Source: a virus
Taxonomy: Duplodnaviria > Caudoviricetes
Direction: 5' to 3' (one strand)
DNA: 43,587 nt
Virus record (IMG/VR): IMGVR_UViG_3300022895_000015
Span: 1-43,587 of that record
Shown: positions 1 to 15,160 of the stretch, piece after piece
How the letters are laid out: every line of letters begins with the position of its first letter
Numbering within the stretch: position 1 is the first letter of the stretch
Translations under genes and position numbers: made by a program
The notes under the pieces: generated by a model
The model's input: the letters and a program-made list of their open reading frames with translations, nothing else
What the model was told of the DNA's origin: nothing
Database searches by the model: none

Positions 1-14
1 TTTCAGAAATTCGC

Positions 15-30
15 TGGTATGATGCGCGCC
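15..30 (+). promoter_or_regulatory. Extended -10 (TG-g-TATGAT) and GC-rich discriminator of the tRNA promoter
   Basis: TGgTATGAT at 15-23 followed by GCGCGCC, just upstream of the tRNA; typical stable-RNA promoter. Confidence 0.65.
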
Positions 31-33
31 ATT

Positions 34-123: not shown

Positions 124-127
124 TACA
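98..127 (+). repeat. attL core GGGTTCAAATCCCTATCTCTCCGCCATACA
   Basis: Identical to 43461-43490; covers the tRNA 3' end. Confidence 0.96.
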
Positions 128-136
128 CGAAGTAGC

Positions 137-180
137 CGAAGCCCCCGAAAACGTTGATGTTTTCGGGGGCTTCGTCGTTT
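137..180 (+). terminator. Phage-supplied tRNA terminator
   Basis: 16-bp stem CGAAGCCCCCGAAAAC/GTTTTCGGGGGCTTCG; similar to the host hairpin at 43501-43540. Confidence 0.85.
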
Positions 181-193
181 CTGGTCTTTGCAT

Positions 194-224
194 TAGGGCA
201 ATTCTAGGGCATTCCACAAGGGCA
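194..224 (+). repeat. Candidate integrase arm-type sites, left
   Basis: TAGGGCA at 194 and 205 (11-bp period), AAGGGCA at 218; the same motif and spacing occur inside attR. Confidence 0.7.
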
Positions 225-420
225 TTTAGGCCGCGTTAGGCCGGGATACGCCGCCTAAATCAGCTACTAGAACGATTTTCATAGGTTGGACTGAGTAACC
301 TTTCGAGATGAGACTGGCGTATAGCCATTGCGTGAGCATTTGTGACATATTGCCACCATCTCGTCGGATCGGCTTGCCGTATCTGAAGGTATGAGTTAAC
401 CTGCGTGTTAAGGAGTCGGC

Positions 421-915
421 ATGAAGCTGCACGTGCTAACAAGGAAGTACATCCTGGAGAAAGCGGGTGTGAACACCGCTAAAATGACCTCAATCAGTGG
501 AACTCTCAAATGGGTGCCAGTGATGATCCTCCCTGCCTCGGGTCAGCCAGACAAAGCTTCCTTCATAAAGTCTGTGATCGCTGATGTCGACGACCGCTCA
601 AAGCGCAGTCACTTCGTTGCGATGATCGATGCAATTTTCAGTGGAATGACACTGGATGATTTCTCTGAGCACTTTGCCAACTGCGCTGTCAAATACAAGG
701 TGGCGGGCAAATTCGAGTATGCGAGCAAGGTAGAGAATCTGAGGGAGCTCAAGCATGGAAACAAGGATCGAATTTACCTGTATCCATATACAGGGAAAAG
801 TGAGCGCTATCTGTTTTTTCTTGAGGCCGCTCACAAGAACCAAGAGCAAACCGAGAAATCGGTGAAGGACCGTCTTGGAGACTTGATTAAGAAAATCATC
901 GACGAGAAATTATAG
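421..915 (+). CDS. Putative RelE/HigB-like toxin of a TAC system
   Basis: AAGGAG RBS; C-terminal pattern LRELK..RIYLY..LFFLEAAHK..T resembles the RelE/HigB WELR..RxxY..LLHxFxKK.KT pattern; precedes HTH and SecB-like genes. Confidence 0.62.
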   Translation: MKLHVLTRKYILEKAGVNTAKMTSISGTLKWVPVMILPASGQPDKASFIKSVIADVDDRSKRSHFVAMIDAIFSGMTLDDFSEHFANCAVKYKVAGKFEYASKVENLRELKHGNKDRIYLYPYTGKSERYLFFLEAAHKNQEQTEKSVKDRLGDLIKKIIDEKL

Positions 916-934
916 TCCTTATTAGGGTCACGTT

Positions 935-1369
935 ATGAACAACTTTGATATTGCCCAACAGATTGCAGAAGATGCTGAAGTCTTCAGTTATGCGCGGCGT
1001 GGTGCGCCTATTCTTGAAATTAGGCGAATTATGGCGCTGAAGGGGCTGAAAAATATCGATATCGCCGAAAGACTTGGTGTCTCTGAAGCTAATGTTTCTC
1101 GGTGGCTGCGTGGCGATCAAAATCTCAAACTTGATACGATTCACTCTCTTGCTGACGCGGTCGAGGAAAGACTCGACCTTTGTTTTGGTGAATCTCACTT
1201 GAGAGTATTTTTGTCTGAAATGAACTTTTCTGAACCTGAGGTTCAAACGTTTTCTGCTAACGTTTATCCAATTGAAGATTACAGATATGCTCGTGCAGAC
1301 TTTGTATCTTGTAATGATGAAGAGTATGGAGAGGTAGAGGCCAATGAAGGCTGCTTCGCTTTCAATTGA
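935..1369 (+). CDS. XRE-family HTH antitoxin (HigA-like) with C-terminal extension (candidate ChAD)
   Basis: LKNIDIAERLGVSEANVSRWLRGDQNLKLDTIHSLADAV is an XRE HTH; ~55-aa acidic/aromatic tail follows. Confidence 0.82.
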   Translation: MNNFDIAQQIAEDAEVFSYARRGAPILEIRRIMALKGLKNIDIAERLGVSEANVSRWLRGDQNLKLDTIHSLADAVEERLDLCFGESHLRVFLSEMNFSEPEVQTFSANVYPIEDYRYARADFVSCNDEEYGEVEANEGCFAFN

Positions 1370-1904
1370 GAAGGTTGAGTTTATCCATGTAAAAGTGGAG
1401 ACAAATAATTCATTTGAGGGTGATTTTTCCTCGGAATTTAAGCAACTCGATTTTCCGTTTAAGGGCGTTACGTTCCGTAGACGTATGAGTTTGCAGTATG
1501 ACAAAGCAAAGCCTGAAGATCCTAAGAGCTTTGTGTTCGGGTTGAACGTCATGCTTAGCGAAGATCCAGAGGACGCCGAGAACGTATCTTTGCCTTACAA
1601 TATTGACGTGAAGGCCGTCGTATACATGCGTTACGAATCTGACCAGCTGTCTGGGATGGAGCGTTTTCGTGCGATTAGAGCTACCGGATATTCAGTTCTG
1701 TACGGGGCAATCCGTGAGATGGTTTCTAATCTCACTGCTAGGGCTCCACATGGAATGTGGTCTCTTCCGTCTGCGAACTTCAACACCGCCGCGAATGATG
1801 AAGCCGTGCGCGATGAGGAAAAACGGCAAGAGCTGATTGCTAAAAAGTCCTCCCTAGCTCCGAAAAAGCCAGTTAGACGAGTAAAAAAATCTACGGATAG
1901 CTAA
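1344..1904 (+). CDS. SecB-like chaperone
   Basis: Beta-rich N-half plus SecB-type C-terminal motif VLYGAIREMVSNLTARAPHGMWSLPSANF; overlaps the antitoxin end. Confidence 0.8.
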   Translation: MKAASLSIEKVEFIHVKVETNNSFEGDFSSEFKQLDFPFKGVTFRRRMSLQYDKAKPEDPKSFVFGLNVMLSEDPEDAENVSLPYNIDVKAVVYMRYESDQLSGMERFRAIRATGYSVLYGAIREMVSNLTARAPHGMWSLPSANFNTAANDEAVRDEEKRQELIAKKSSLAPKKPVRRVKKSTDS

Positions 1905-1933
1905 TTAAAAATTAGATTCATCGCCAATTAGTG

Positions 1934-1970
1934 AAGGGTGGCCGTCATAAGACTGAAGGCCACCCTTTTT
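1934..1970. terminator. Terminator between convergent TAC and integrase genes
   Basis: AAGGGTGGCC/GGCCACCCTT stem followed by a T-run. Confidence 0.7.
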
Positions 1971-3204
1971 ATTTATCAAAGCCCATCATTTTAGAGACTA
2001 TATGCGCCATGCTTTTGGCGTCCTTCGAAATCCAGCGACCATAATGCTTGCGTACCATGGTCGTATCGCTGTGCCCGAGTTGTCGGGCCACCCATTCAAT
2101 CGGTACGTAGCTCGACAGCGCTTGGCTCGCGAACGTGTGGCGTGCCTGGTTGGCGCCTCGATGGCGAATGCCTGCTTTCTCAAGGTGGGCGGTGAACCAG
2201 TTGCTGACCGTCTTGCCGCTCCACAGCAGGCCGGTGGTGGAGCTGCGGAATAGGAAGCGAACCCGCTCATGCTTCTTCGTGATGTTGTCACGCTGCACAA
2301 CGGTGATGTGCGTGGGTTCGGCATTCTTAGCTTCCGCCACGATCATGGTCAGCAGATCCAAGGCCGGCGCGATCAGCTCTACCGTGCGGATGCGAGAGCG
2401 TTCCTTTGGTACCTTGAACTCCCCTGCGACCAGAGCTCGGCGGATTGTCAGAGTACCGGCCACCAGGTCGACGTCCTCTACGCCGACCGCGATCAGTTCG
2501 GACAGGGATAGCCCGGCCCAGCAATTGAAGACGATCATCCGGCTGTCAGTATTCCGCTCCGGATCGGCGTCGGCTATCCGCTCAATCTCGCTCCGGGTGA
2601 ATGGGTCAGCGAATTCGCTGTCGCTGTCAGACTGGATGTTCTCGATGCGCTCCAGGGGGTTGAGTTTGATGATCTCATCGCTGAACGCATCCCCCCACAC
2701 CCCCCGTACAATGGTGAAGATGTCGTTTACGGTTTTCGGTTTGAGACCATTGGTGAGTAGTTCGGCTTGGAATAATTCAAGCTCACTCTTTGGGATGCTT
2801 GCGATGGTTCTGCCGGTGAATTTCTTCCTGACGTGTTCTGACTTGCTCTTATAGTTGATGAAAGTGCTATGGGCTTTTTTTACCTTGGCAACTTCAAGCC
2901 ACTGGGTAATCCCTTCGTCTACAGTTCTTTTTGCGGGCTCATTCGGAAGTTTTCGTCTGGCCTTGAGCCAAACCGAGTCTGGGAAATGAGCTGCATAGTC
3001 GAAGCGGTTTTCCTTGATTTCAGCAATTATTGTTCTACGTTTGTTATCCGCATAAGCGATGGCGGCCTTGTTGATCTTGGCCACATTGCGTAAAGGCTCC
3101 CGGCGGCGTTCGCCTTCGTACGTGAAGGCGATCCGCAGGAGGTTGCCATTGATGTCGATGCCCGTAGGTAGGGTGTCGACACCTGGTGGGAGCTTCACAC
3201 TCAT
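1969..3204 (-). CDS. int: Tyrosine integrase with N-terminal arm-binding domain
   Basis: RHTFAS and QLGH..TTM..KHY catalytic region; 411 aa; near attL. Confidence 0.95.
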   Translation of the reverse strand: MSVKLPPGVDTLPTGIDINGNLLRIAFTYEGERRREPLRNVAKINKAAIAYADNKRRTIIAEIKENRFDYAAHFPDSVWLKARRKLPNEPAKRTVDEGITQWLEVAKVKKAHSTFINYKSKSEHVRKKFTGRTIASIPKSELELFQAELLTNGLKPKTVNDIFTIVRGVWGDAFSDEIIKLNPLERIENIQSDSDSEFADPFTRSEIERIADADPERNTDSRMIVFNCWAGLSLSELIAVGVEDVDLVAGTLTIRRALVAGEFKVPKERSRIRTVELIAPALDLLTMIVAEAKNAEPTHITVVQRDNITKKHERVRFLFRSSTTGLLWSGKTVSNWFTAHLEKAGIRHRGANQARHTFASQALSSYVPIEWVARQLGHSDTTMVRKHYGRWISKDAKSMAHIVSKMMGFDK

Positions 3205-3455
3205 GGCCGGCCGGCCATCCAGTTCTCGATTTCAACACGGTTGTAGACAATGACGTTGGCAGGGTCAGTGCGCCATTGTTTTTCTTCAAGCCAAATACCC
3301 CGGTCGCGATATTTGCGTACAGCCTCAGTGCTCAAGCCGAAAACAGGGAATAACAACTCTTTCCGGATCCATACGGCGGGAGTGATAAGAAGTTGAACAG
3401 GCTGGGCAGACTGCTTGTTCACTTCGTGAACGGGTTTAACTTGTGGCTTTGCCAT
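3201..3455 (-). CDS. xis: Excisionase / recombination directionality factor
   Basis: Small basic protein overlapping int by ATGA; GIWLEEKQWR..YNRVEIENWM Xis-like pattern. Confidence 0.75.
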   Translation of the reverse strand: MAKPQVKPVHEVNKQSAQPVQLLITPAVWIRKELLFPVFGLSTEAVRKYRDRGIWLEEKQWRTDPANVIVYNRVEIENWMAGRP

Positions 3456-3470
3456 TTAATATTCTCCGAC

Positions 3471-3683
3471 TTACCGAAGTGGTTGCAGGCGCTGAAGCTG
3501 CTGCGTTTTCTTTGCGGCCACGTTGGCCATGTGGGATTGCCACTCGACGTTCTTTCGCTGCTGCCGGATCTTGCTGCAGCGGGAATGGTTGCGGGTCGAG
3601 CGCGCTTGTCCGCAGATGTCGCACATGACGGGCAGGTCAAGGCTATGGGTAGCCATGCGGGGCCTGGTGGCTGGTTGGCTCAT
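3471..3683 (-). CDS. Small Cys/His zinc-ribbon phage protein
   Basis: CDICG..R..NH..CSK.RQ; ATGA-coupled in the early operon. Confidence 0.7.
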   Translation of the reverse strand: MSQPATRPRMATHSLDLPVMCDICGQARSTRNHSRCSKIRQQRKNVEWQSHMANVAAKKTQQLQRLQPLR

Positions 3684-4264
3684 GGCATAACCTCAAGGAC
3701 AGCGCTGTGATGGAACGTGCGGGGTTTACTAGTCTTGCGATTCTTTCCGTAGATGTAGCCGGGACGAGACCACCAGGCTGCGCAGTGCCCTGTTACCTCA
3801 ACTTCAATTTTGGTCCCGCTGGCTTGGATCATTAGCCGGCTGCCAGTTGGATAGATACGTCTCACTGCTGCCAGCAAGCCGACCTGTGCCATCAGCAATT
3901 CGTTATCGGCCGCCTTGACTTCACAAAGGGCCTTCGCGGTGGGTGTACTGTCGAGGTTGATGTTGGTGTCGGGCGTACCGCCCTCCGCCTGGTTGAGGTC
4001 GCGTCCAACCGAAGCACCGGCGCAGGGCATGCCGGAGAGCATGATGATGCTCTCGGGCTCGAAGCCCTCGGTGTTCATCGGGCGGTGGCGCTGGAACTCG
4101 CGTCGCTCACCATCTACCGCGCCTGCTTTGTAACCAGCCAGGAACACCAGGTATTCGCCATGCGTGCGCGTGTCAGCGAAGCCGGTGCAGCCCTTCACCA
4201 GTTCACGCTCGCCCCGGCCGATGGGATTGAGGCTGATGAATAAGTCACGTGGATCTGTGTTCAT
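3680..4264 (-). CDS. Hypothetical phage protein
   Basis: ORF 3680-4318; start at 4264 gives an ATGA overlap with the upstream gene. Confidence 0.7.
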   Translation of the reverse strand: MNTDPRDLFISLNPIGRGERELVKGCTGFADTRTHGEYLVFLAGYKAGAVDGERREFQRHRPMNTEGFEPESIIMLSGMPCAGASVGRDLNQAEGGTPDTNINLDSTPTAKALCEVKAADNELLMAQVGLLAAVRRIYPTGSRLMIQASGTKIEVEVTGHCAAWWSRPGYIYGKNRKTSKPRTFHHSAVLEVMP

Positions 4265-4446
4265 GATGTGCGCCCTCGCATGATGATGAAGCCAGCTGCT
4301 TGACGAGTTTTGGAGCACTGGTCGTGATTGCCCTTCACGCGAGCCTTGCCACAGATGTCGCAGATGAACGACATGGCGGGCCGAAGCATCGGCTGCATGC
4401 CCTTGGGCGTGCGAGTGGTCGGGGTGTAGGTCGATGTGTCGATCAC
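4261..4446 (-). CDS. Small zinc-ribbon protein, paralogous to 3471-3683
   Basis: CDICGKAR..NH..CSKTRQ; 4-nt overlaps on both sides. Confidence 0.65.
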   Translation of the reverse strand: MIDTSTYTPTTRTPKGMQPMLRPAMSFICDICGKARVKGNHDQCSKTRQAAGFIIMRGRTS

Positions 4447-4646
4447 AGCGAATACCTCTCGTGGACTCGGCGAGCGTTCGGGCTCAGGGCGAGGTGCTCA
4501 AAGCTCGCAGCGCTGCTAACTCTCGGTACCGTGCCTATCGCTGGGCGGTAGGCGGTGCTGCTGCGATACAGTTCGGCAAGGGTGACGATCAGTGCTCCAG
4601 CGAGCGCAAGGCTGATCAGCTGCCAGGCGCGTGTCGGGTTAGGCAT
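4443..4646 (-). CDS. Small membrane-anchored hypothetical protein
   Basis: Hydrophobic stretch LISLALAGALIVTLA; coupled in operon. Confidence 0.65.
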   Translation of the reverse strand: MPNPTRAWQLISLALAGALIVTLAELYRSSTAYRPAIGTVPRVSSAASFEHLALSPNARRVHERYSL

Positions 4647-4935
4647 GTTGACGGCCCTCGTTGAGCTGGCTGAGCACCTGCTTTGTAGCTAGTTCGAACA
4701 GTTCGGTGGCGGATACTGGCGTGACGGACTGCTCGCAGTTGTGCACGGCTTCAAACCGGGTGCGGTACAGCCCGGCCTGGCCGAGCCAAGCGACGGCATT
4801 GTGTTCGGCGTTGGACACTGGGCAGCCTTGGGCTTCAGGGACAGTTCCTTCGTGGGTGCGCCTGCACTTACTGCAGTGATACAGGCCGCCGTCGTCGGCC
4901 TCGCTCATGTACCAATCATGGCGGTACGTGCTCAT
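4639..4935 (-). CDS. Hypothetical phage protein (CxxC)
   Basis: HCSKC motif; overlaps both neighbours. Confidence 0.7.
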   Translation of the reverse strand: MSTYRHDWYMSEADDGGLYHCSKCRRTHEGTVPEAQGCPVSNAEHNAVAWLGQAGLYRTRFEAVHNCEQSVTPVSATELFELATKQVLSQLNEGRQHA

Positions 4936-6761
4936 GCGGCCTCCTGCTGGTAAAGGTCGATCAGGTCTTTCGCGTTGGCGGCAATCAAGTCTTCCGCTTC
5001 GTCAGGGCAGACGCTGTTGCCGATCAGACGGATCTGGTCGGTGTTCTTGATCGGGCGCCACTCCAGCAGGCCGGTTTCCTTGTTCTCGAACAGGCCGCGA
5101 TCAAGGATGTAGTCGGGGCTGAAGCCTTGGGCGAGCTTCAGCTCTGGGGCCTTGAGCATGCGGAGGGTGAAGTCGACCAGTGCGTAATCGCCGAGTAGCA
5201 CCAGGTCAACCAGATCGGGGAAGTGCTCCGGCAGGTACTTGTGCAGGAAGTGAGCGCACTTGCGGGCCTTCGCCAGCAGCTCTGGCGGCAGAATCGCGGT
5301 GGGGACCTGGACAACGGTGACCAGCGCCATGCGTTCCTTGGTCGGCAGAGTGTGCATCGGTTCGCCCATGTCTTGCCACTGCCCGCCGGTGCCGTAGTAC
5401 TTCACCAGGTACGCACTCGCCAGGCGCTGGTTGGTGCCGCGCCCGAGAATCGTGCTCAGTGGCACCTTGGCTGCTCGCCCGTCGCCCTTGTAGAAACCGC
5501 CGTTGGCTTGCTCGAAGTGGCATGCGGCGAACGCGTGGTGGCCGCTGCCGGTAGTCAGGGCGTTTACAGGGTGGTCCATGCCGCTACCAGTGGAGCCTTT
5601 GCGCAGGGTGATCATCGACGCGGTGACCAGTGCTTGTTCGCCTCTGTTCGCCCCGGTGATCGTTCGGGTGGACTCGGAAACGGGGTAGCCTGAGCGGTCC
5701 CCATGATGTGTGAGGTGGGTCAGGTGGGCTGCGGCCAAGGCGAAATGGCCACCCTTGATCTGGGCCACCTGAGTGCGAAGCGGCTCGCCTGCGCTGAAGG
5801 TGCGCTGCGTGCTCGCGTTGGCGAACTCGGTGAGGCTTGCGGCGGCCAGCTGTTGCTCGTCCAGCTGGAGCACGAAAGGCTGCTCGGCCATGACGGTGTG
5901 GCGCCAGAAACCTTTCGCCACGCGTCGGCAGGTGTTGTCCACCAGTGGGCGTTTGCGTGCGAACAGGCTCTTGCCCAGGTCGGAAAAATCGATGCACTCG
6001 GCGGCGGTGCGCCAAGGCAGTTGGCCCGGTTTCGGGTTCTCGTGTCGCTTCGGCTTCGTCCAGACGATCGGGCGGCCATCCGTACGGCCGATTAGGAACA
6101 GGCGCTTGCGGATAGTTGGGGAGCCGGCGTTCGAAGCGCGGCGCTCACGCCACTCTACGTTGCAGCCCAGGCCCCGCACTAGTGCGTCCATCGGTACCCA
6201 CTGGCCGATGCAATCCATGATCTCGCCCATGTCCGGATGATCGGCAGCCAGGCCAGTGGTGAGACAGGCGACGAATGCCTTGAAGGTGCGACCCGTTTCC
6301 GACTTGATCGGCCTGCCTGCGTCGTCCAGCGGCCCCCAGGCTTGGAACTCTTCAACGTTCTCCATTAACAGCAGGCGTGGGCGGGTGGCAAAGACCCAGC
6401 GAACCACGACCCATGGCAGCGAGCGCACAGCCTTGCTTCTTGGGGCGCCGCCTTTGGCCTTGGAGAAGTGGCGGCAGTCAGGGGACGCCCACAAGATCCC
6501 CACGGGCTGGCCGCCGGTGGCCTGCAGTGGGTCGACTTCGTAGATGTCGCTGATGTAGTGGCGGGTGTTGCGGTGGTTCGCGCGGTGTACCGCGATTGCG
6601 ATAGGGTTGTGGTTGATGGCGATGTCAGGGTCGCGGTATACGCGGGCGCCGCCGCTGCTTGCCCCACCGGCACCGGCAAACAGGTCAACGTACAGTTCGC
6701 GCTGGAAGGGCAGAGCTTGCTGCTGCGCACCCTGGGTATCGATCTGCAGGGCAACTGTCAT
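4932..6761 (-). CDS. Orphan C5 DNA cytosine methyltransferase
   Basis: Motif I DLFAGAGG, motif IV SPDC, motif VI ENV, R.RLF, motif X IGNSV. Confidence 0.93.
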   Translation of the reverse strand: MTVALQIDTQGAQQQALPFQRELYVDLFAGAGGASSGGARVYRDPDIAINHNPIAIAVHRANHRNTRHYISDIYEVDPLQATGGQPVGILWASPDCRHFSKAKGGAPRSKAVRSLPWVVVRWVFATRPRLLLMENVEEFQAWGPLDDAGRPIKSETGRTFKAFVACLTTGLAADHPDMGEIMDCIGQWVPMDALVRGLGCNVEWRERRASNAGSPTIRKRLFLIGRTDGRPIVWTKPKRHENPKPGQLPWRTAAECIDFSDLGKSLFARKRPLVDNTCRRVAKGFWRHTVMAEQPFVLQLDEQQLAAASLTEFANASTQRTFSAGEPLRTQVAQIKGGHFALAAAHLTHLTHHGDRSGYPVSESTRTITGANRGEQALVTASMITLRKGSTGSGMDHPVNALTTGSGHHAFAACHFEQANGGFYKGDGRAAKVPLSTILGRGTNQRLASAYLVKYYGTGGQWQDMGEPMHTLPTKERMALVTVVQVPTAILPPELLAKARKCAHFLHKYLPEHFPDLVDLVLLGDYALVDFTLRMLKAPELKLAQGFSPDYILDRGLFENKETGLLEWRPIKNTDQIRLIGNSVCPDEAEDLIAANAKDLIDLYQQEAA

Positions 6762-7273
6762 GCTGCGGCTCCTGCAGTTGTGGCGCTCGGAGTGCTGCGC
6801 AGTTGGACGTGGATACGTTTGGCCAGCTCGTCGATGACGTCAGCCTGGGTTCCCGCTCGGGCTGCCTCGGCTTCGGTTTTCAGGGCTTTGAAGGTGCGCT
6901 GAGCCAGGCGCATCGTGGACGAGGCGCTGACCAACTTGTCATAGTCCGCCTTGGTCACTGCGAGGCCGGTGTACGACATGATCCGTGCGTCAAGCTCACT
7001 GATGCTGGCTTGGAGCGCAACGATCTTGATGTGGCGTGCGGCCAGCTCCAGCTCGCAGGTTTGCTGAGCGCGCTGCAATTCCGTGCGCATTTCGTCTTGG
7101 GCTTGCTTCGCTTCCCTGAGCTGAAGGGTCAGGCTCTGGTCGTGGAAGGCTTTGCCTTCGTTAAAACCTCGGGCATAGGCAAGGCGGCGTGCTTTGGCAA
7201 TCAGGAAGGGAAGGATGATCAGGGTCACCATCCAGGCGATACCAGCTGCAAGTGCGTACTGATGTGGTTGCAT
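6758..7273 (-). CDS. Hypothetical protein, N-terminal TM helix plus coiled coil
   Basis: GGAG RBS; hydrophobic N-terminus; heptad-rich body. Confidence 0.8.
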   Translation of the reverse strand: MQPHQYALAAGIAWMVTLIILPFLIAKARRLAYARGFNEGKAFHDQSLTLQLREAKQAQDEMRTELQRAQQTCELELAARHIKIVALQASISELDARIMSYTGLAVTKADYDKLVSASSTMRLAQRTFKALKTEAEAARAGTQADVIDELAKRIHVQLRSTPSATTAGAAA

Positions 7274-7364
7274 GTGCTGTGCTCCAAAGTGCCCAGCACC
7301 GGCCGGTGGTGTGGTGATGGCCAGGTGCTGGATGCGATGCCCCTGATGGCCGGGGCCGCCTCTG

Positions 7365-7604
7365 CTATGCCGTCTGCTTCGATTGAGTGTCGAGGTAGTC
7401 GGCGAGGTCGTGTAGGTAAATCACGTACTGCGCTCGGGCTGAGTGGTGCAGCTTTGTAGGCTTCAGCCCAATCTTTCCGGCGTTGATCAGCTCCCTGAAC
7501 CGGCGGTCTGTCTTGATGTGGGGGAAGTAGTGCTCACGCACCGCAGTCAATGTCGGGCAGGGAGTGGTCCACTGCTTGCGTAGCTGCCCAAGCGTGTCTG
7601 TCAT
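7365..7604 (-). CDS. Pyocin activator PrtN-family protein
   Basis: L..VREHYFPH..INAGKI..S.RA..VIYLHDLADYLD is the PrtN-family pattern. Confidence 0.8.
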   Translation of the reverse strand: MTDTLGQLRKQWTTPCPTLTAVREHYFPHIKTDRRFRELINAGKIGLKPTKLHHSARAQYVIYLHDLADYLDTQSKQTA

Positions 7605-8110
7605 GGGTGCTCCCCACGCCCCTCGGGGATCTGGCCGAGCTTCGCGCGCACTGCTTCGGCAAGCGCGGTCTTGCAGCTGCCGTATGCAGTCGCGTAGACC
7701 TCTCCCTGATCGTCGGTCACAACGGTGCCGAAGGGACGGTGGTCGTCGGTTGTGGGAGTGATGTAGGCATGCAAGCCTTCAGGTAATACCTGGCTAACAC
7801 AGTCCAGTGCTTCCATCAGGGCGATAGCGCGCTGGATCTGTTGTCCCGATTCAGTTCGACCATTGGCCACGTCCTGCAGAAAGTCGCGCAGGGACATGTA
7901 TTTGGTCGAGTCGCCGCGGTGCAGCGTGATCGAGCCCGTGAACGGTCCAAACCGAACCTGCAGGTGATGATCGCGGTCGTCGTTCTCCACCTGGATGTGC
8001 GCATCGACGCTGGTTTCAGGGCGTCGCAGCGGGCAAGTGGCGCTGCCTCCTTGCTCCAGCGTGCCCTCCAAAAGCATCACGCGGCGCAGATTGATGGTGA
8101 ATTCGTTCAT
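7601..8110 (-). CDS. Hypothetical phage protein
   Basis: 169-aa ORF with ATGA overlaps on both sides. Confidence 0.75.
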   Translation of the reverse strand: MNEFTINLRRVMLLEGTLEQGGSATCPLRRPETSVDAHIQVENDDRDHHLQVRFGPFTGSITLHRGDSTKYMSLRDFLQDVANGRTESGQQIQRAIALMEALDCVSQVLPEGLHAYITPTTDDHRPFGTVVTDDQGEVYATAYGSCKTALAEAVRAKLGQIPEGRGEHP

Positions 8111-8268
8111 GCCTCACCCCCATTGGGGATGGCGCGGACATGACCGGCAGGGGAGACAAGCAGGCGAAGCCCGGTAGAGCGTTGAAAGGCTTCAACGGTG
8201 GAAGGGCGGGTGCAGGTGGTTGGGTGCAAGTAGACCTTACACCCACTGTTTGGCTGTGCAGTTGGCAT
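8107..8268 (-). CDS. 53-aa first gene of the leftward operon (absent from the ORF track)
   Basis: MPTAQPNSGCKVYLHPTTCTRPSTVEAFQRSTGLRLLVSPAGHVRAIPNGGEA*; GAGG upstream; stop overlaps the next ATG (ATGA). Confidence 0.75.
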   Translation of the reverse strand: MPTAQPNSGCKVYLHPTTCTRPSTVEAFQRSTGLRLLVSPAGHVRAIPNGGEA

Positions 8269-8303
8269 TTCTGGACCTCAGTGGTGAGAGGGTAGCGGTC
8301 CAG

Positions 8304-8346
8304 ACAATACTCAAACGAATTTGGACGGTCAATACCTTTTCGTATT
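8304..8346 (-). promoter_or_regulatory. PL promoter with two repressor operators
   Basis: Minus strand TTGACC-17-TATTGT (8332-8304); operators AATACTCAAACGAATT 8306-8321 and AATACCTTTTCGTATT 8331-8346. Confidence 0.8.
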
Positions 8347-8365
8347 GATCGTATGAGTGGCGTGG

Positions 8366-9025
8366 TTAGAAGATTTCCAGCTTGGAAACCACGACTCCGC
8401 AGATCGATGCATCTTCGGGTAGCTCGATAATCGGATCAGGCCAAGATGGGTTCAGCGGTTTCAAAAATCTCCGCGCCCCCTCTAGAACCAGTTGTTTAAA
8501 CGTCGCTTCCTTGCTGTCGGCGAGCTTGGCAATAACCATCGATCCGTTCTCGTAGTCCTTGTTCGGATCGACAAAAATGATGTCGCCATCAAGGAACGAG
8601 CGCCTCTCATGGGGGTTGTACATCGATAGGCCTCGCACCCTCAGCGCAAACGTCGCGCTGCTGTGTGACACCGCGCAAGGTAGCCAGTTTTCTACGTCCT
8701 GCAGTTCGAGCACATCTTGCATTTCACACCAAGCTCCCGCCTGCACCCAAGAAATCAGCGGGACAAATCCGCGAATACGTGGACCTGGTTCGATGTTGGA
8801 GTTCGGGCCGGTCGCGATGTCAGGCGCTTCCCCGCCTTTCCAAAGCCACTCACTGGTCACGCCTAGGGCTTTCGCCAGCTTTTCTACGTTTGCCTGGCGT
8901 GGGCTTGCCGAAGTTCCACTGAGGATGCGGTGGATAGTCGGCTGCGGTACCCCTGAGCGTCTTCCTAATTCCCCTTCGGACCACTCCAGTTCATGCATTC
9001 GCTGTGCTACGCGCTTTCCTATCAC
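8366..9025 (-). CDS. cI: CI/PrtR-like repressor (HTH + S24 autopeptidase)
   Basis: HTH ELGRRSGVPQPTIHRIL, cleavage site VQAG, catalytic GLSM and TFKQL; GTG at 9025 preferred because the longer frame runs through the operators. Confidence 0.93.
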   Translation of the reverse strand: MIGKRVAQRMHELEWSEGELGRRSGVPQPTIHRILSGTSASPRQANVEKLAKALGVTSEWLWKGGEAPDIATGPNSNIEPGPRIRGFVPLISWVQAGAWCEMQDVLELQDVENWLPCAVSHSSATFALRVRGLSMYNPHERRSFLDGDIIFVDPNKDYENGSMVIAKLADSKEATFKQLVLEGARRFLKPLNPSWPDPIIELPEDASICGVVVSKLEIF

Positions 9026-9037
9026 GGCCTGTGCTCT

Positions 9038-9113
9038 GATTCGTTTACGTATCGGAATTGTATTGCTCTGTTTAATTCGTTTGGGTATTATCACTCCAAT
9101 TCGATAACGCATC
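9038..9113. promoter_or_regulatory. OR region: three operators, PR and PRM
   Basis: GATTCGTTTACGTATC 9038-9053, AATTCGTTTGGGTATT 9074-9089, AATTCGATAACGCATC 9098-9113; PR TTGCTC-17-TATTAT (9063-9091); minus-strand TACAAT at 9057-9062. Confidence 0.8.
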
Positions 9114-9123
9114 GGTGGGTGCA

Positions 9124-9318
9124 ATGACCATTCAAGAGATGCTTCAAAAGCTGATTGATCTGGGGTTTTCGCAACGTGCTATCGCAGATCGGGTTGGCGT
9201 TACGCAGCCAACTATCTATCGAGCCACAAAAGGTGCAGCCGTCCGCTATGAGGTGGGTAAGGCTATTGAGCTGTTCTATGAAGAGCAAAAGAAGGTTGCT
9301 GAAAAGCAGCAAAAGTAA
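9124..9318 (+). CDS. cro: Cro-like HTH protein
   Basis: SQRAIADRVGVTQPTIYR; divergent from cI; recognition helix QPTI.R shared with CI. Confidence 0.88.
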   Translation: MTIQEMLQKLIDLGFSQRAIADRVGVTQPTIYRATKGAAVRYEVGKAIELFYEEQKKVAEKQQK

Positions 9319-9323
9319 GGACT

Positions 9324-9477
9324 GCTGAGCTGAGGCCTCTCACCACAAGATCCCTCAGCTCAGCGAGCGCGGCGCAAAAGCGCCGTTGCACCCGCCATCC
9401 GGTTGCCTCTCACCACAAGATTCGCCGGATGACTAGAACCGCGTGAAATGCCCGCACAGCACGCAAAGCACAGCACA
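9324..9477 (+). promoter_or_regulatory. Structured cro-cII leader with duplicated 17-nt loop motif
   Basis: GCCTCTCACCACAAGAT at 9335 and 9405, each inside a different stem; CGGCGC-AAAA-GCGCCG hairpin between them; GCACAGCAC at 9454 and 9468. Confidence 0.7.
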
Positions 9478-9545
9478 TCGGTCGTATTCACAGGATAGGA
9501 CGTTGAAAGCCCTGTGACTACACCGTAAACCGAGGATTTACGGTT

Positions 9546-10034
9546 ATGAGTCGCGTTGATCTATTACCGGACGCCGGTCCGGTCCTCGCATTGCGCCAGG
9601 CGCTCTATCGCGCTGGTCGCGACTATCACGGCGGCATCACCAAGCTGGCCTTCGATATGGTCATGGACGTGGATGCCCTGCAGAAAAAGCTTCACCCCAC
9701 AGAAGAGCGTCGCTGGCCCAGCCCGGACGAGATTGAAGAGATCGTCCGCTGGACTGGTGATCCACGGCTGCTTGATGCGCTCGTCCGTCCGGCATGTGCC
9801 GTCTGGTATCGCCCGGAGCCTGTCCCAGCGACCAATGAGGCGCTGCAGGCGGTAGCGAAGCTGCTTGAGGAGTCCAGCGAATTTGTCGGTACCTTGCACG
9901 ACGGCGCCGCTGACAACGTGTGGACGGCTGCCGAAGTGCTCGACCTTGAGCGTCGCGGCATGGATGTGATCCGCCAGGTGCTTGCCATCATGGCGGGTGC
10001 GCGTCAGGCCATGGAGGACGAAGCTCATGGCTGA
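9546..10034 (+). CDS. Phage regulatory CII-family protein
   Basis: YHGG..LA..M..L.KKL.P pattern; position after cro; GAGG RBS. Confidence 0.78.
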   Translation: MSRVDLLPDAGPVLALRQALYRAGRDYHGGITKLAFDMVMDVDALQKKLHPTEERRWPSPDEIEEIVRWTGDPRLLDALVRPACAVWYRPEPVPATNEALQAVAKLLEESSEFVGTLHDGAADNVWTAAEVLDLERRGMDVIRQVLAIMAGARQAMEDEAHG

Positions 10035-10230
10035 TGTGATCGATGTGGCCAATGACCAGGCCGACTACCACCTGCAGGTGGCGCTTCAGCGCCGCGTTCG
10101 CCCAGCGACTAAGCCGAGCGCGCAGTTCTGTGAAGACTGCGATGAACCAATCCCGGAGGTGCGGCAGCAACTGGTGGCGGGGTGCGAGACTTGCATCAGC
10201 TGCCAGGAACTGCGGGAGCGCCGCAGATGA
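10027..10230 (+). CDS. TraR/DksA C4 zinc-finger protein
   Basis: MAD.ID.A, CEDC..PIPE.R..GC..CISCQ. Confidence 0.9.
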   Translation: MADVIDVANDQADYHLQVALQRRVRPATKPSAQFCEDCDEPIPEVRQQLVAGCETCISCQELRERRR

Positions 10231-12995
10231 GCGAAGGGCCAACCTCTACCACAGCTGATTGGGCGCGGCGGTACATTGAAGCCTTCGATCTCGCCTTGGT
10301 TCCGATTGAACCAGGTGAGAAGGGGCCGAAGGGTGCCGGCTGGAACAAGCCGGGTGGCTATTTCACGGACGCCTCGAAGGCTGAAGCGTTTTGGACTGCG
10401 AGCCCGAACCACAACCTCGGTGTTGTTCTCGGGCCAAGTCGCGTCTGTTCGCTGGATGTTGATGATGTCGAACTGACCCGGCAGGTTCTGCAGCAGACGC
10501 TTGGGCTTGATGTCGATGCACTCGCTGACGCCTACCCGACATCTGTGGGCAACCCTGAACGATTCCGCGTGATGTTCCGCGTCCCCGAGGGCGTTGAGCT
10601 AAGTCGCCACGCTCTGGTTTGGCCAAACAAGAACGACCCTGATGGCACCATCTACAAAGGACTGATGGTGCAAGTGAAGGCTGCCATGGAAGAGGGAGAT
10701 GCAGGCCGCGAGGCAGCTTACCGCATGGCGGCTGAGCCCTTCAAGAAAGTGACGGTCTTCGAGCTGCGGGGCGGCTTGGTGCAGGACGTATTGCCGCCAT
10801 CCATTCACCCAGGCACTCGCAAGCCCTACACATGGCGTACCCCGCCGAGCGCTGACGGCTTGCCAGAGCTGCCGACCAACTTGCTGGCCATCTGGCAGGA
10901 CTGGGACGATTTCAAGCCGAAGGGGGAGGCCGTTTGCCCTTGGAAGCCAAAGGCGGCAGCGTCTGTGCCCGCAGTTCGTCCAGTGGCCAAGTCATCACCA
11001 GCTGCAGCTCGAGCCGTTGATCGGCTCCCCGAGGTCATCCCTGAGTTCAATCGCATCCATGATATTGCCACGATGATTGAGGCGCACGGTTACAAGCGCA
11101 TCGATGGGAAGTGGTTGAGCCCACACAGCAGCTCAGGACTACCCGGTGTAACGATCACTGAAGGCAAACTCTATTCGCATCACACGTCTGATCCACTGGC
11201 CAACGGACACAAGAATGATGCGTTCGATGTGTTCTGCATCTTGATGCACGACGGCGACCAGAAAGCTGCGACCAGAGCGGCTGCTCGAATCCTTGGTATA
11301 GATGCGAAGTCCCGTCCGCCTGCGCCGCCGCCATTGGGCGAGCTTCCCCATACCCCATCGGTGGTCGAGCAGGCCGACCATGCTTCATTCATCGACAATG
11401 ACGTCGAAGGCCCTCCCCATTCTCCTTCGGACGACGAAGCATCCAGCCCGGCCGGCTCCTCGGCTACCGGGGGGGCAGGGGGTGACGCCCTGGATATTGA
11501 TGGTGCGATGCGCCGCTTCGCCCTGGTCGAAGGCACCACCAGCGTGTGGGACTTGGACAAGGGGCGGTCGATGAAGCGGACAGGCTTCGAGGCTCTGGTC
11601 GGCAAGCCGCTCGCGAAGGAGTGGATGGAGCGGACTGATAAGAAGCTGATCGCGACAGAGCAGGCTCAGGAGCTTGATCAGGCCCGCCGTATGTCGGCCA
11701 AGAAAGGCGGGGCGTTGAAGCTCGACCCCATCGAGCGCTACGTGTACATCGACGGCACCAAGGACGTGTGGGACCGGGAGAAGAAGCGTCGTATCGCCGA
11801 GGGGGCCGTAAAAATGGCCATGGGAGAAGAGTACAAGTGGTGGCTCAACAGCCAAGATCGGCGTGTCGTGGATGTCGACCACATCGTATTCGACCCCACC
11901 ATGACCAAGGATCCCAACCTTTACATCAACACTTTCGAGGGGCTCCCGCTGGAGCCTGTGCGTGATGACGCGGCGTGCGAGAACCTGCGCTGGTTGATTT
12001 CCTTTCTCTGCAACCATGATGAGGAAGCACTGGGCTGGCTGACGAAGTGGTTGGCATTCCCGCTGCAGAACATGGGAGCCAAGATGGACACTGCGGTGCT
12101 GATGCATTCCATCATGGAGGGCTCAGGCAAGAGTTTGTTGTTCGCGGACATTTTCGGCCAGCTGTACGGCCAGTACGCGGCGACCGTTGGCCAGACTCAG
12201 TTGGAGGGTAGCTTCAACGCCTGGCAAAGCCGGAAGCTGTGGGCTGTATTCGAGGAGGTCGTAAGCCGGGACCAGCGTTACAACCAGGTCGGCAAAATCA
12301 AGCACATGATCACCGGCAAGACCGTGCGCATGGAATCGAAGTTCATCAACGGCTGGGAAGAAGCCAACCACATGAATGCGGTCTTTCTGAGCAATGAAAT
12401 CATGCCGTGGCCCATCAGCGAAGATGATCGTCGGATGCTTGTGATGTGGCCCTTGCAAACATTGCCAGTTGATCGCCAGAAGGCTATCGGTCGGGAGCTG
12501 AGCAACGGAGGGGTGGCGGCACTATATGGTTGGCTGCTCGCGGTCGACCTTGGAGATTTCAACCAGCGAACCCGTCCTCCCAAGACCGAGGCCCGGCAAC
12601 GTTTGGTCGCGCTTAGCCGTACTGCATGGCAAACTTTCCTTCACCTCTGGCAAACTGGAGAACTAGGCCGAGGTTTATGGGGTTGCTGTCTCGCGACCGA
12701 CCTGTATGCGTTGTTCATTGAGTGGTGCTCACGTAACAAAGAGCATGCCATGAGTCAGACGAAGTTCTCGCTGATGCTCAGTGCGACGGTGGAGAAGACG
12801 CGCTCGATCCCATGGACAGAGGGGAATAATCGCCGTTTTGCGGCGTTCTTCTTCCCTGATGATCCCCAGGCTTCCCTGCCCCCATCGTTCAATGCGGCCG
12901 AGCTGGGGCAAGCCGTTATCACCTGGCGCAGCAAGGCGAAACTTGCAGGGTGGAACGTCGACGCGTGGGAACACGTGAAGGGGGTCGCTGCATGA
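10227..12995 (+). CDS. Primase-polymerase fused to SF3-type helicase
   Basis: N-terminal K.P..GW, NLG, LDVD, LPPSIHP Prim-Pol motifs; C-terminal Walker A GSGKS, FEE, FLSN. Confidence 0.88.
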   Translation: MSEGPTSTTADWARRYIEAFDLALVPIEPGEKGPKGAGWNKPGGYFTDASKAEAFWTASPNHNLGVVLGPSRVCSLDVDDVELTRQVLQQTLGLDVDALADAYPTSVGNPERFRVMFRVPEGVELSRHALVWPNKNDPDGTIYKGLMVQVKAAMEEGDAGREAAYRMAAEPFKKVTVFELRGGLVQDVLPPSIHPGTRKPYTWRTPPSADGLPELPTNLLAIWQDWDDFKPKGEAVCPWKPKAAASVPAVRPVAKSSPAAARAVDRLPEVIPEFNRIHDIATMIEAHGYKRIDGKWLSPHSSSGLPGVTITEGKLYSHHTSDPLANGHKNDAFDVFCILMHDGDQKAATRAAARILGIDAKSRPPAPPPLGELPHTPSVVEQADHASFIDNDVEGPPHSPSDDEASSPAGSSATGGAGGDALDIDGAMRRFALVEGTTSVWDLDKGRSMKRTGFEALVGKPLAKEWMERTDKKLIATEQAQELDQARRMSAKKGGALKLDPIERYVYIDGTKDVWDREKKRRIAEGAVKMAMGEEYKWWLNSQDRRVVDVDHIVFDPTMTKDPNLYINTFEGLPLEPVRDDAACENLRWLISFLCNHDEEALGWLTKWLAFPLQNMGAKMDTAVLMHSIMEGSGKSLLFADIFGQLYGQYAATVGQTQLEGSFNAWQSRKLWAVFEEVVSRDQRYNQVGKIKHMITGKTVRMESKFINGWEEANHMNAVFLSNEIMPWPISEDDRRMLVMWPLQTLPVDRQKAIGRELSNGGVAALYGWLLAVDLGDFNQRTRPPKTEARQRLVALSRTAWQTFLHLWQTGELGRGLWGCCLATDLYALFIEWCSRNKEHAMSQTKFSLMLSATVEKTRSIPWTEGNNRRFAAFFFPDDPQASLPPSFNAAELGQAVITWRSKAKLAGWNVDAWEHVKGVAA

Positions 12996-13008
12996 AACCA
13001 AGAACCTC

Positions 13009-13300
13009 TGTGTTGGGTGTGTTGGGTTTGTGTTGGGTCGGTCTGAGCAACCCAACACGCATAGAACCCCCAAAATTCAAGGCTTCCCGTGCCCCTGTGT
13101 TGGGTGTGTTGGGTTTGCGCACACGCGCGCGTGCGGGTGACTTATTTCTCATGCTTCGGCAGGCCAACAAAAAAACCTATGCGAGGACTCAAAAACCCAA
13201 CAAACCCAACACACTCAACACAACTACTAATAAGGTATTGAATTTATTGGGTTTTATCTGTGTTGGGTTTGTGTTGGGTTGGCTAAATGTGTGTTGGGTT
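13009..13300. repeat. Iteron cluster, probable replication origin
   Basis: About 12 copies of TGTGTTGGG in both orientations plus an AT-rich segment (~13221-13258), directly after the primase-helicase. Confidence 0.8.
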
Positions 13301-13320
13301 CTAATTTCGGGGGGTACGCG

Positions 13321-13866
13321 ATGAGCATGGATCAGGAATTGGGGCTCCTGCTGCGTGTCACGCAGCACCAGGTTGATATGGCAGAGCTGATTGATGCTGC
13401 CGAGCGCTTGCGGTTGGTTGGTGAGCTGATGCGCCATTGGGGCGAGCAGCGGCGGCAGGTCGGGCTGGAGGCGAGCCTTGGCAGTCAAATGGGCACGATC
13501 ATGGAGTGGAAGGGGGCGGCCCCGCGTGGTGGCGTGTCGGGGCATCGCATTCTGGTTGCCGGGGCTGGCTTGGATCACCCTGCGGCAGAAGTGGACGCTG
13601 CCGTCGTCCAACTGGGGAGGCGCGACAAACGGGGCGAGACCTTGGCCAAGCTGGCAGAGATGCGGTACTTCCTGGGCTTCACTGTTCGGGAGCAAATGAG
13701 GGTAGTGGGGCTGGCAGAAGATGCTGACCGTACCTATCGCAACTGGGTCAAAGCCCTGCATCTTCAGGTGTTTGCGATCCTGGCTGCGAGGTCTGGCAGG
13801 GTTCGGCAGCAGACCGTTCGTCGGGTCAATATGCGCCGAGCGTGCGCCGAGGATGCGCCGAAGTAG
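13321..13866 (+). CDS. Putative late-gene regulator (Q position, pyocin PA0613-like)
   Basis: Position between replication and holin; LMRHWGE and LAEMRY..Q...TYRNWV..LH C-terminal HTH-like pattern. Confidence 0.65.
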   Translation: MSMDQELGLLLRVTQHQVDMAELIDAAERLRLVGELMRHWGEQRRQVGLEASLGSQMGTIMEWKGAAPRGGVSGHRILVAGAGLDHPAAEVDAAVVQLGRRDKRGETLAKLAEMRYFLGFTVREQMRVVGLAEDADRTYRNWVKALHLQVFAILAARSGRVRQQTVRRVNMRRACAEDAPK

Positions 13867-13925
13867 CGCCGAAGCGGAGAACCGAAAACAGCCCCTTTTC
13901 GGTTTTTCCGGTGGCCTGTAAAAAG
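13833..13925 (+). promoter_or_regulatory. Late promoter region: four phased heptamers and an inverted repeat
   Basis: GCGCCGA at 13833, 13844, 13855 and 13866; AACCGAAAA-7-TTTTCGGTT at 13880-13904; only a weak -10 (TAAAAA). Confidence 0.55.
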
Positions 13926-14008
13926 TCACCACGATGTGAAAAGTGCGCTTAGGCGCTGACCCAACAAGCACTGTGCTGTGCAACCCGCCCCGACTTCTCG
14001 GTGCATCG

Positions 14009-14040
14009 AGAACCCTGCCAACCGGCGGGGTTTTCTTTTT
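14009..14040 (+). terminator. tR'-like terminator before holin
   Basis: AACCCTGCC-AACC-GGCGGGGTT followed by TTCTTTTT. Confidence 0.8.
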
Positions 14041-14070
14041 CCGGCGCCGTGCTTTGCCAATGAGGCTTAC

Positions 14071-14418
14071 ATGAACAGCGAGCAACAAGCGTTAGCCGAA
14101 CTGCCGATCTGGATGGTGATAGTGCTGTCCCTGGTCGGCGGTGTGTCGGGAGAGATGTGGCGGGCGGACAAGGCGGGTGCTCGTGGTTGGGGGCTGATTC
14201 GCCGGTTGGCTCTGCGCTCGGGTGCCTGCGTTACCTGCGGGCTGTCGACCAACATGCTGCTGTACGCCCTCGGTGTTTCGGTGTGGGCTGCTGCAGCTGT
14301 CGGGTGCCTGACCGCGATGGCCGGCGCCGATGTGGCGATCAACCTCTACGAGCGCTGGGCCGCCAAGCGGCTGGGCATCGAGCAGGTGCCGCCGCAGGCT
14401 GGCGAGCCGGGGCAGTGA
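14071..14418 (+). CDS. Holin (pyocin R/F-type)
   Basis: Hydrophobic helices; GGVSGEMWRADK.G motif; GAGG RBS. Confidence 0.85.
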   Translation: MNSEQQALAELPIWMVIVLSLVGGVSGEMWRADKAGARGWGLIRRLALRSGACVTCGLSTNMLLYALGVSVWAAAAVGCLTAMAGADVAINLYERWAAKRLGIEQVPPQAGEPGQ

Positions 14419-14438
14419 GCCGGCCGGCGGCCCCGGCA

Positions 14439-14567
14439 GGGCGGGGGACCCTGGCGATATGGCCGGGGTACGGGACCGGGAACCCGCGCTTCTTCGTTAG
14501 CGGGTGGTTCACCAGCTTAGTGAACTGCGGTGAACTGGTTAACCCCCTGATTTTATTGGATGAACTG
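14439..14567 (+). other. Candidate cos packaging region
   Basis: Non-coding gap before terS; GGGCGGGGACCC matches lambda cosN at 10 of 12 positions; TGAACTG at 14521, 14531 and 14561 as R-site candidates. Confidence 0.5.
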
Positions 14568-14578
14568 GACTTTGCGAC

Positions 14579-15160
14579 ATGACGTACCTGACGAAATCGG
14601 AGTTCGCTGCCCGTCACGGATGGTCGAAATCCTACGTCTCTAAACTGGCCAAGCAGGAACGGCTGGTGCTGACCGACGACGGCAAGGTCGACGTCGAAGC
14701 CACTGAGCTGCTGCTGGCTGAGTCCGCCGATCCGAGCAAGGCAGCTGTGGCTGCCCGGCATGAAGAAAACCGCGTTGAGCGGGATGTCCGAAGCCAGCTC
14801 CAGCCCGGCCCCGGCCCACTAGCGGTGTCGCAGCCGGATCCAGCACCTGGCGGGGCTCACAATTTCCAGAAGGCGAAGGCGCACCGCGAGTACTACCTCG
14901 CCCAGTTGGCCGAGGCTGAGTTCAACAAAGTCCAAGGCAATCTGGTCGAGCGAAAAGCGGTGGAAGATGCTGCCTACACGGCAGGCCGGATGCTGCGCGA
15001 CCAGTTATTTGGGCTCGCCCCGCAGCTTGCCGCCGAGCTGGTCGGTATGAGTGACCCGTGGGAGATCGAAAAACATCTCGCGAGCGCCTTCCGCCGCGTT
15101 CTAACCGAGGTCAGCAAGATGAGCGATGCCGACCTTAACCTAGCCATCACACAGAGCTGA
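14579..15160 (+). CDS. Terminase small subunit
   Basis: N-terminal winged HTH (KSEFAARHGWSKSYVSKL), LAE.EF..G.LV coiled coil; precedes terL. Confidence 0.88.
   Translation: MTYLTKSEFAARHGWSKSYVSKLAKQERLVLTDDGKVDVEATELLLAESADPSKAAVAARHEENRVERDVRSQLQPGPGPLAVSQPDPAPGGAHNFQKAKAHREYYLAQLAEAEFNKVQGNLVERKAVEDAAYTAGRMLRDQLFGLAPQLAAELVGMSDPWEIEKHLASAFRRVLTEVSKMSDADLNLAITQS

Follow-up and report, generated by a model that had tools for sequence, protein, structure and literature searches.

A predicted CII-activated, two-seed antisense RNA in the cro-cII gap of a temperate phage and its relatives

Introduction

The c4 antisense RNA of phage P1 pairs through short a and b segments with its targets (c4-a1b1), and the CI RNA of P4 and the CA RNA of N15 are its relatives. 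The nut sites of lambda and the put sites of HK022 lie just after pL and just after cro. Here we describe a locus that resembles both arrangements in part, the gap between cro and cII in a 43,587-nucleotide (nt) stretch of viral DNA (Duplodnaviria; Caudoviricetes; IMG/VR record IMGVR_UViG_3300022895_000015), hereafter the window, which is the complete record of a temperate phage. The original prediction for this DNA had noted a two-part motif, a TCACCAC loop followed by GCACAGC, in three early leaders: (a) between cro and cII, (b) behind pL and (c) behind prtN. It had proposed an undescribed early control circuit, working either by nut/put-like antitermination or through paired antisense targets like those of P1 c4.

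Several described systems are relevant to this locus. The c4 RNA is reported to control ant (PMC8201110). The 186 pE promoter is described as yielding CI and integrase (PMC8538670, PMC7708051, PMC6593788), with CII half-sites at -38 and -58 (PMC6593788), and in the available parts of the lambda and 186 papers the establishment promoter is said to supply repressor and to cause transcriptional interference. Lambda OOP and P22 Sar are presented as short antisense RNAs of the switch region that favour one pathway and have one target mRNA each, cII and ant, respectively (PMC12197685). StxS is reported to be a base-pairing regulator in lysogens with the targets rpoS and stx1B and without a detectable effect on phage propagation (PMC7547250), and GcvB is described as directing a G/U-rich seed against C/A-rich sites at the ribosome-binding regions of many mRNAs (PMC3879156). 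A search of the full-text literature, judged by titles and the beginnings of abstracts and with subscription papers, bioRxiv supplements and non-Rfam motif catalogues outside its scope, revealed no account of the system described below; four motif strings gave four matches in the alignment supplement of PMC2864571, none of which resembled the element in the lines shown.

Comparison of the window with its relatives suggests that the cro-cII gap probably encodes a CII-activated antisense RNA with two seeds, which would block translation in the left early operon.

Results

The comparison comprised 303 sequences, namely 297 loci gathered through cII similarity, five named phage genomes and the window. 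The number of sequences differs from test to test because loci too short for a test drop out, and most counts are of distinct sequences. KT1, which is in reverse orientation, was left out of the counting scripts, and four loci from a further scan for distant relatives were kept out of all counts; a second such scan mostly repeated earlier loci. The hosts of the relatives include putida, fluorescens, syringae, aeruginosa, stutzeri and Azotobacter, and the cultured phages with the system are Lodos, Turba, PG1, pAN and KT1. Because the named relatives belong to Pseudomonas and close genera, we infer that the host of the window phage is a Pseudomonas.

All of the motifs were found in the window where they had been described, TCACCAC at 9340 and 9410 (plus strand) and at 8287 and 7317 (minus strand), and GCACAGC at 9454 and 9468 (plus) and at 8259 and 7282 (minus). 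Counted singly they are weak, with 12 TCACCAC against 5.8 expected (3 of 100 shuffles reach 12) and 14 GCACAGC against 14.4 expected. Their pairing goes beyond chance: three TCACCAC have a GCACAGC at most 70 nt away, and each of 300 shuffles had at most one. Conservation in relatives, which had been named as a test, was found in about 300 related Pseudomonas phage loci. The exact letters had to be revised, as TCACCAC is the version of the window's sub-lineage only. The relatives' cores are CUCU-N-AC (N being C, G, U or A) or CACU-N-ACC (N being C or U), which we name a, and CACAGCA(C), which we name b; the complements are a' and b'. The three leaders stand, and a fourth GCACAGCAC that had been overlooked is located at 13981-13973 on the minus strand, its complement being borne by the late leader. 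TCACCAC at 13926 was rejected as a site, since it is not conserved and falls in a variable part of the late promoter. An a-like match of 9 nt, TCTCACCAC, occurs in the mRNA sense within a methyltransferase gene (6256-6264), possibly by chance. No known Rfam family covers the sites: a scan of the window at the gathering score gave only the tRNA at 34-120, the weak matches in positions 1-15000 include no phage antisense family, and nine relatives gave none.

The cro-like helix-turn-helix (HTH) gene (9124..9318, plus strand) and the 186-type cII gene (9546..10034, plus strand; Pfam PF06892, E 6.9e-15, above the curated cut-off) enclose a predicted leftward promoter of the sigma70 type (9492..9520, minus strand). 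Its -35 element TAGTCA (9520-9515) and -10 element TATCCT (9497-9492) are 17 nt apart, and the predicted +1 is at 9485. The promoter pattern was found in 277 of 292 loci; on the plus strand it occurs in 1 of the 292, and among 1460 shuffles in 38. With the start of the first hairpin as the sole anchor, T-12, A-11 and T-7 were present in 144, 145 and 149 of 152 distinct sequences, respectively, and the middle positions varied more. An inverted repeat at 9520..9546 (half-sites 9520-9526 and 9540-9546) is centred at -38 and -58 and encloses the cII ribosome-binding site, with a complementarity of 0.74-0.98 over eight positions in 85 distinct sequences. We predict that this repeat is a CII operator and that the promoter is activated by CII. 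In six loci (L142, L143 and L145-L148) the promoter and the repeat lie farther out, about 150-180 nt upstream of cII, and extra a hairpins and a b box are present between the promoter and cII.

The RNA predicted to start at this promoter (9305..9485, minus strand) is about 170-180 nt long, its 3' end being approximate, and consists of a 5' hairpin with b' boxes, two a' hairpins and a U-rich tail (z -3.0). The two b' seeds GUGCUGUG are at 9476-9469 and 9462-9455 (minus strand), the first about 10 nt past the predicted +1. The inner a' hairpin (9396..9431, minus strand) carries the loop GUGGUGAGAG at 9416-9407, and the last one (9323..9365, minus strand) carries GUGGUGAGAG at 9346-9337 and is followed by a weak U-rich tail; it is possibly a leaky terminator. 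The last hairpin is followed by at least four U in 126 of 216 RNAs; the same holds for 28 of 138 inner hairpins and for 2 of 89 in an mRNA-strand control. In the relatives, the first hairpin of the predicted RNA shows GUGCU in its loop, and after it come one to four hairpins whose loops are of the GGUGAG type; relatives with a single hairpin have an RNA of about 70-90 nt.

The stems that had been noticed in the cro-cII leader do fold (z -5.7 for 9316-9440). In 55 single-hairpin leftward RNAs (55 of 56 listed, L223 being omitted as a different class), 98.9% of the cells pair and 9 of 24 pairs change on both sides; none of 500 shuffles reached this, and slid controls paired at 26-54%. G-U pairs fall on the leftward strand rather than on the other by 150:2 and 54:2, of which the second is the fairer ratio because the 5' hairpin was defined on the leftward strand. 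In a strand-neutral count, the mRNA strand of 155 cro-cII stems has 66 A-C against 31 G-U, and 20 late terminators have 0 against 8. The motif had been described as always lying in the transcribed sense, which applies to the boxes of the left operon; at the cro-cII site the fold is favoured on the strand opposite to the mRNA. The idea of an early control circuit at the RNA level is supported, except that site (a) reads better as the putative gene of an antisense RNA on the other strand than as a third target.

The two other leaders have the features of targets. Behind the pL promoter TTGACC-17-TATTGT (8304..8332, minus strand), the pL-leader target (8253..8304, minus strand) contains the a site CCTCTCACCAC at 8291-8281, a Shine-Dalgarno sequence at 8279-8276, the AUG at 8268 and the b site GCACAGC at 8259-8253 (codons 4-6), together with inverted-repeat arms at 8304-8297 and 8277-8270 (minus strand). 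The predicted target gene is the first pL gene (8107..8268, minus strand), which encodes 53 amino acids (aa) of unknown function. In the target after prtN (7271..7331, minus strand), a hairpin at 7331-7292 with the loop TCACCACA is followed by the Shine-Dalgarno GGAG (7285-7282), the b site CACAGCAC (7281-7274) and the AUG (7273), so the motif does fill the spacer between Shine-Dalgarno and start codon, as had been described; the predicted target gene there encodes 171 aa with no family found (6758..7273, minus strand).

Among 402 distinct left-operon contexts of CACAGCAC, 228 lie 0-4 nt before an AUG, 148 at most 16 nt after an AUG and 26 elsewhere, and 374 are in the mRNA sense against 7 in the opposite one. 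Some relatives have three or more a and b pairs in the left operon, and the box of the prtN site is kept while the downstream gene changes between lineages. Among 123 first pL genes, 122 have an A as the last base of the codon preceding Gln-His, which indicates that the box is fixed at the nucleotide level; the background of A-ending codons in primase is 255 of 3994 Thr codons and 872 of 8894 Ala codons (6-10%). Sites (b) and (c) are therefore likely, as judged from their sequences, to be complementary targets at translation starts of the early-left genes.

In the window's sub-lineage, the 5' arm of the pL hairpin (8297-8304) comes immediately after the -10 box and for the most part precedes the expected start. 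The hairpin (8297-8304/8270-8277) could form solely in read-through RNA from cI and would mask the Shine-Dalgarno of the first pL gene; its arms covary in relatives.

Loops and their targets vary jointly. In 241 of 247 loci, the cro-cII copy and the pL site carry an identical nucleotide at the variable loop position (206 C, 26 U, 8 G and 1 A), and the concordant loci other than C form 11 groups on a FastTree tree of cII, some of which may be one event. Within a phage, the contiguous a match has a mean length of 10.8 nt; the mean is 6.3 nt between phages and 9.0 nt when the eight nearest relatives are taken. Set against these relatives, a phage's own match won 154 times and lost 31 times (n=199). 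A variant b' was found in 15 of 212 distinct loci, and the target follows in three lineages: b' GUGUUGUG goes with the target CACAACAC (L094, L095, L103 and L287), b' UGGCUGUGUC goes with GACACAGCCA (L207, L210, L211, L212 and L233), and the variant b' of L293 has a 9-nt match at the pL site. With the canonical b', the core of the prtN site is CACAGCA in 114 cases, CACAACA in 0 and CACACCA in 4, and is absent in 38. L237 lacks canonical boxes. In L225 and L234, the loops of the cro-cII gap form a mosaic, two being of the A type and several of the C type, and these arrays may be intermediates in a change of specificity.

Such joint change would also be expected of a protein-binding site, and this bears on the rival explanation that survives best, one we nevertheless consider unlikely: that a and b are mRNA-sense sites for a phage or host protein, serving nut-like antitermination or translational control, and that the leftward promoter is a pE of the ordinary kind, with a leader that owes its complementarity only to overlap with one site. 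Copies lie right after pL and right after cro, in the places of nutL/nutR and putL/putR, their concerted change fits a protein of drifting specificity, and no N gene was recognised in the window's gene annotations and Pfam matches. However, the G-U pairs of the cro-cII hairpins fall on the leftward strand rather than on the mRNA, the 5' hairpin begins exactly at the predicted +1, copies occur at up to several translation starts per phage, and the late leader carries the complement rather than the sense motif. No clean column or residue tracked the loop type in the first pL gene or ten other families, in alignments that were noisy and left small open reading frames outside their cover. Of the two options in the original prediction, targets like those of P1 c4 fit sites (b) and (c), and the nut/put option is weakened because the boxes stand at translation starts of changing genes (376 of 402 contexts), because no protein was found to covary with the loop nucleotide in the first pL gene and the ten families, and because the cro-cII hairpins fold on the non-mRNA strand.

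Other partners of the a loop were also considered. A search for a separate RNA partner found none, either within about 8 kb of cII or across the PG1 genome as a whole, where the eight GGTAAG are six a sites and two in late genes. Pairwise alignments of non-C with C loci, with and without wobble, gave only the loops and coding or near-coding sites that did not recur by type, and a primase codon that seemed to track the G type also occurs often in C loci (71 of 184). The idea of the loop as an anti-Shine-Dalgarno or a tRNA-anticodon mimic was dropped because its length and flanks vary and all four nucleotides occur.

A second RNA carries the b' seed. Behind the candidate for a Q-like late antiterminator gene (13327..13866, plus strand; placed with high confidence in the Atlas cluster 'Phage antitermination protein Q', which is a lead only, and with no Pfam match) lies a late promoter candidate, TTTTCG-17-TAAAAA (13896..13924, plus strand), with a conserved CACGAT at the predicted start. 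We take it to be pR'-like by its position, as compared with lambda. The predicted late-leader RNA (13931..14041, plus strand) is about 110 nt long, with GUGCUGUG at 13973-13980 in a small hairpin and an intrinsic terminator at 14008-14041 (z -3.4). Of the 252 late leaders that could be scored (a further 50 could not), 219 contain an exact TGCTGTG; seven of the 33 others have a wobble variant and six have no promoter match. Among 168 distinct leaders, all but three have it 50-60 nt past the -10, and substitutions in the small hairpin give G-U on the leader strand. The late leaders of L019, L025, L046, L087 and L089 have no b' hairpin, the terminator comes directly after the first hairpin, and the sequence beyond is different. 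As a carrier of a' the late RNA was rejected, since its leader has no a'; that it is a second source of the b' seed only is about an even chance.

That the late-leader RNA is itself the main regulator, pairing with the left b boxes and with the cro-cII mRNA leader and flipping alternative hairpins upstream of cII while the a loops have another partner, is in our judgement quite improbable. It draws on the conservation and near-constant position of TGCTGTG, on the absence of left b sites in 12 of 29 loci without a late box compared with 4 of 189 with one, on flanks that shift together in the PG1 lineage (42 of 99 versus 23 of 490 sites, one lineage) and on the mRNA strand being favoured for the hairpin over the promoter. 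It is countered by the missing a', by the targets of L094 and L095, which follow the leftward RNA and not the late box, and by the failure to find a separate a' RNA in the regions searched.

Pairing could also activate, if the RNA opened an a hairpin and freed a ribosome-binding site, or the b boxes could be mainly ACA translation enhancers. The 3' arm of the a hairpin in the pL leader does hold the Shine-Dalgarno, and ACA motifs are reported to boost translation in enteric bacteria (PMC3879156). However, the b duplex spans the spacer and start codon, or codons 3-6, and the explanation appears very improbable. Pairing over the spacer, the start codon or the first codons normally blocks initiation. 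Finally, that the elements work at the DNA level, as cruciforms or as marks for module exchange at gene boundaries, or that gene conversion has spread them as repeats with no regulatory role, is hardly credible: the left-site stems are neutral by strand and the genes behind the prtN site differ among relatives, but polarity with transcription is strict (374:7), the repeats are a mere 7-13 nt, and the cro-cII copy has a strong strand bias and a promoter.

Several observations weigh against the antisense RNA that we propose. The loci are akin to one another and partly redundant, the same sequences served to define the promoter pattern and the 5' hairpin, and the pattern was written after the data had been seen. 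In the promoter region a hairpin is favoured on the mRNA strand by 164:8 (n=174), and since the region folds better on that strand, part of its conservation may serve an mRNA hairpin. The A-C excess of all cro-cII stems is modest at the level of contexts (39 versus 29). In the left-site stems, mismatch counts show no strand preference (23:16 and 14:14), and constrained folding at the left-operon sites likewise prefers the opposite strand (94:35 and 116:31), so constrained folding does not discriminate between strands. Only in 72 of 216 RNAs is the last hairpin followed by at least five U, and termination would therefore be leaky. The loop nucleotide is discordant in two and mixed in four of the 247 loci, and the b flanks are flat against the nearest relatives (107:92, n=213). 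Canonical targets accompany a variant b' in L048, L077, L135 and L137, and L097 has no match. L094 and L095 have a canonical late box though their target changed, and left targets persist in 17 loci that have no exact late box. All 20 sequencing runs considered consist of assembled contigs, and four of them gave patchy, flat cover; contigs carry neither strand nor ends.

The remainder of the window has the genes of a temperate phage, with the tRNA at the left end, the integrase, the left early operon, cI, cro, 186-type cII, a TraR-like gene, primase, the Q-like gene and the late genes. The tRNA gene (34-120, CGA anticodon loop) is a probable integration site, and the cI-like repressor is encoded at 8366..9025 (minus strand). 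Next to the tRNA, a three-gene moron (421-1904) encodes a protein of 164 aa (no family), an HTH protein of 144 aa and a protein of 186 aa (no family); on visual inspection it looks like a toxin-antitoxin-chaperone set, with a PADLOC match for the HTH part only. At 40719-42647, a gene for 376 aa matches PADLOC NsnA (E 4e-63) and PD-T4-2_A (E 3e-38) and, together with an adjoining gene for 265 aa, is likely to be an anti-phage defence moron. Two small genes 600 bases apart (3471-3683 and 4261-4446) share three PHROG families of unknown function. The stretch that separates primase from the Q-like gene (13005-13300) has a 14-nt unit containing TGTGTTGGGT in eight direct copies, plus inverted copies; this array is iteron-like and probably the replication origin.

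Discussion

Sequence comparison gives the -35/-10 pattern, the inverted repeat at -38 and -58, the apparent fold on the leftward strand, the predicted targets at translation starts and the joint change of loop and target. From these we infer that the RNA is produced, that CII switches it on, that docking of a' on a precedes covering by b', and that pairing represses. CII expressed from pR would likely activate the leftward promoter, and the leftward RNA could then interfere in cis with the pR leader. In trans, the a' loop would dock on an a site and the b' seed would then cover the Shine-Dalgarno-AUG region; the predicted b duplex at 7285-7272 has 14 base pairs, among them two G-U pairs. Early-left proteins would fall, and this repression would favour lysogeny in the decision on lysis or lysogeny. 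Read-through past the weak U tail may supply cI, as from 186 pE.

By analogy with pR', the late-leader RNA would be made in the lysogen, where it may sustain part of the repression until Q reads through. More tentatively, and we doubt this more than we believe it, the two RNAs might form one circuit with a shared seed, in which a CII-triggered RNA at establishment and a Q-gated late RNA in lysogeny silence the early-left regulon; the four-way loop nucleotide would define RNA 'immunity types', and the near-universal b seed could damp incoming relatives with a different cI.

If the proposed antisense RNA is real, a widespread Pseudomonas phage family puts the leader of an establishment transcript to use as an RNA with several targets that regulates the other early operon, and the lysis-lysogeny switch gains a post-transcriptional arm. 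The natural variants are ready compensatory pairs that, with the cultured phages, make the proposal directly testable.

Among known systems, lambda nut and HK022 put differ from the window motif, which has extra copies at translation starts, variable stems, no recognised N gene and a non-mRNA-strand fold at the cro copy. The first pL gene of the window (53 aa) is not arginine-rich and does not track the loop type, and the varying stems and loop sizes gave no fixed boxB. GcvB is similar in setting a seed against C/A-rich start sites; it is a host RNA of enteric bacteria, and we claim no homology. Like OOP and Sar, the window RNA would be an antisense RNA of the switch region; unlike them, it matches several distant starts and sits upstream of cII. 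The late leader resembles StxS and lambda 6S (pR'-tR') in lying between the Q-like gene and the lysis region and in ending in a terminator, with promoter, short leader and intrinsic terminator directly after a gene whose identity as Q is an Atlas lead only. Unlike StxS, its seed matches early starts of the phage's own genes and copies the seed of a second phage RNA.

With 186 CII-pE, and with lambda CII-pRE, the window shares a predicted leftward promoter at the start of cII, a CII of the PF06892 type and an inverted repeat at -38 and -58. The available passages on 186 pE mention no trans-acting structured leader, which is what we predict for the window phage. With P1/P7 c4 (RF01695) it would share a small phage RNA with two short seeds, complementary to two-part targets in trans and changing together with them, that would hold back genes on the lytic side. 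Unlike c4, the window RNA is a chain of simple hairpins, antisense in the cro-cII gap behind a CII-type promoter rather than in an icd/ant (immI-type) operon, and its targets are several starts of the other early operon; the targets of 53 and 171 aa have no antirepressor match. The C4 covariance model gave no match at the gathering score in the window or nine relatives, and none at E up to 10 in positions 1-15000. On the best reading, the predicted RNA works like P1 c4 without being a member of the C4 family, and the system as a whole combines a pE module of the 186 type with a two-seed logic like that of c4 and a late RNA that resembles StxS.

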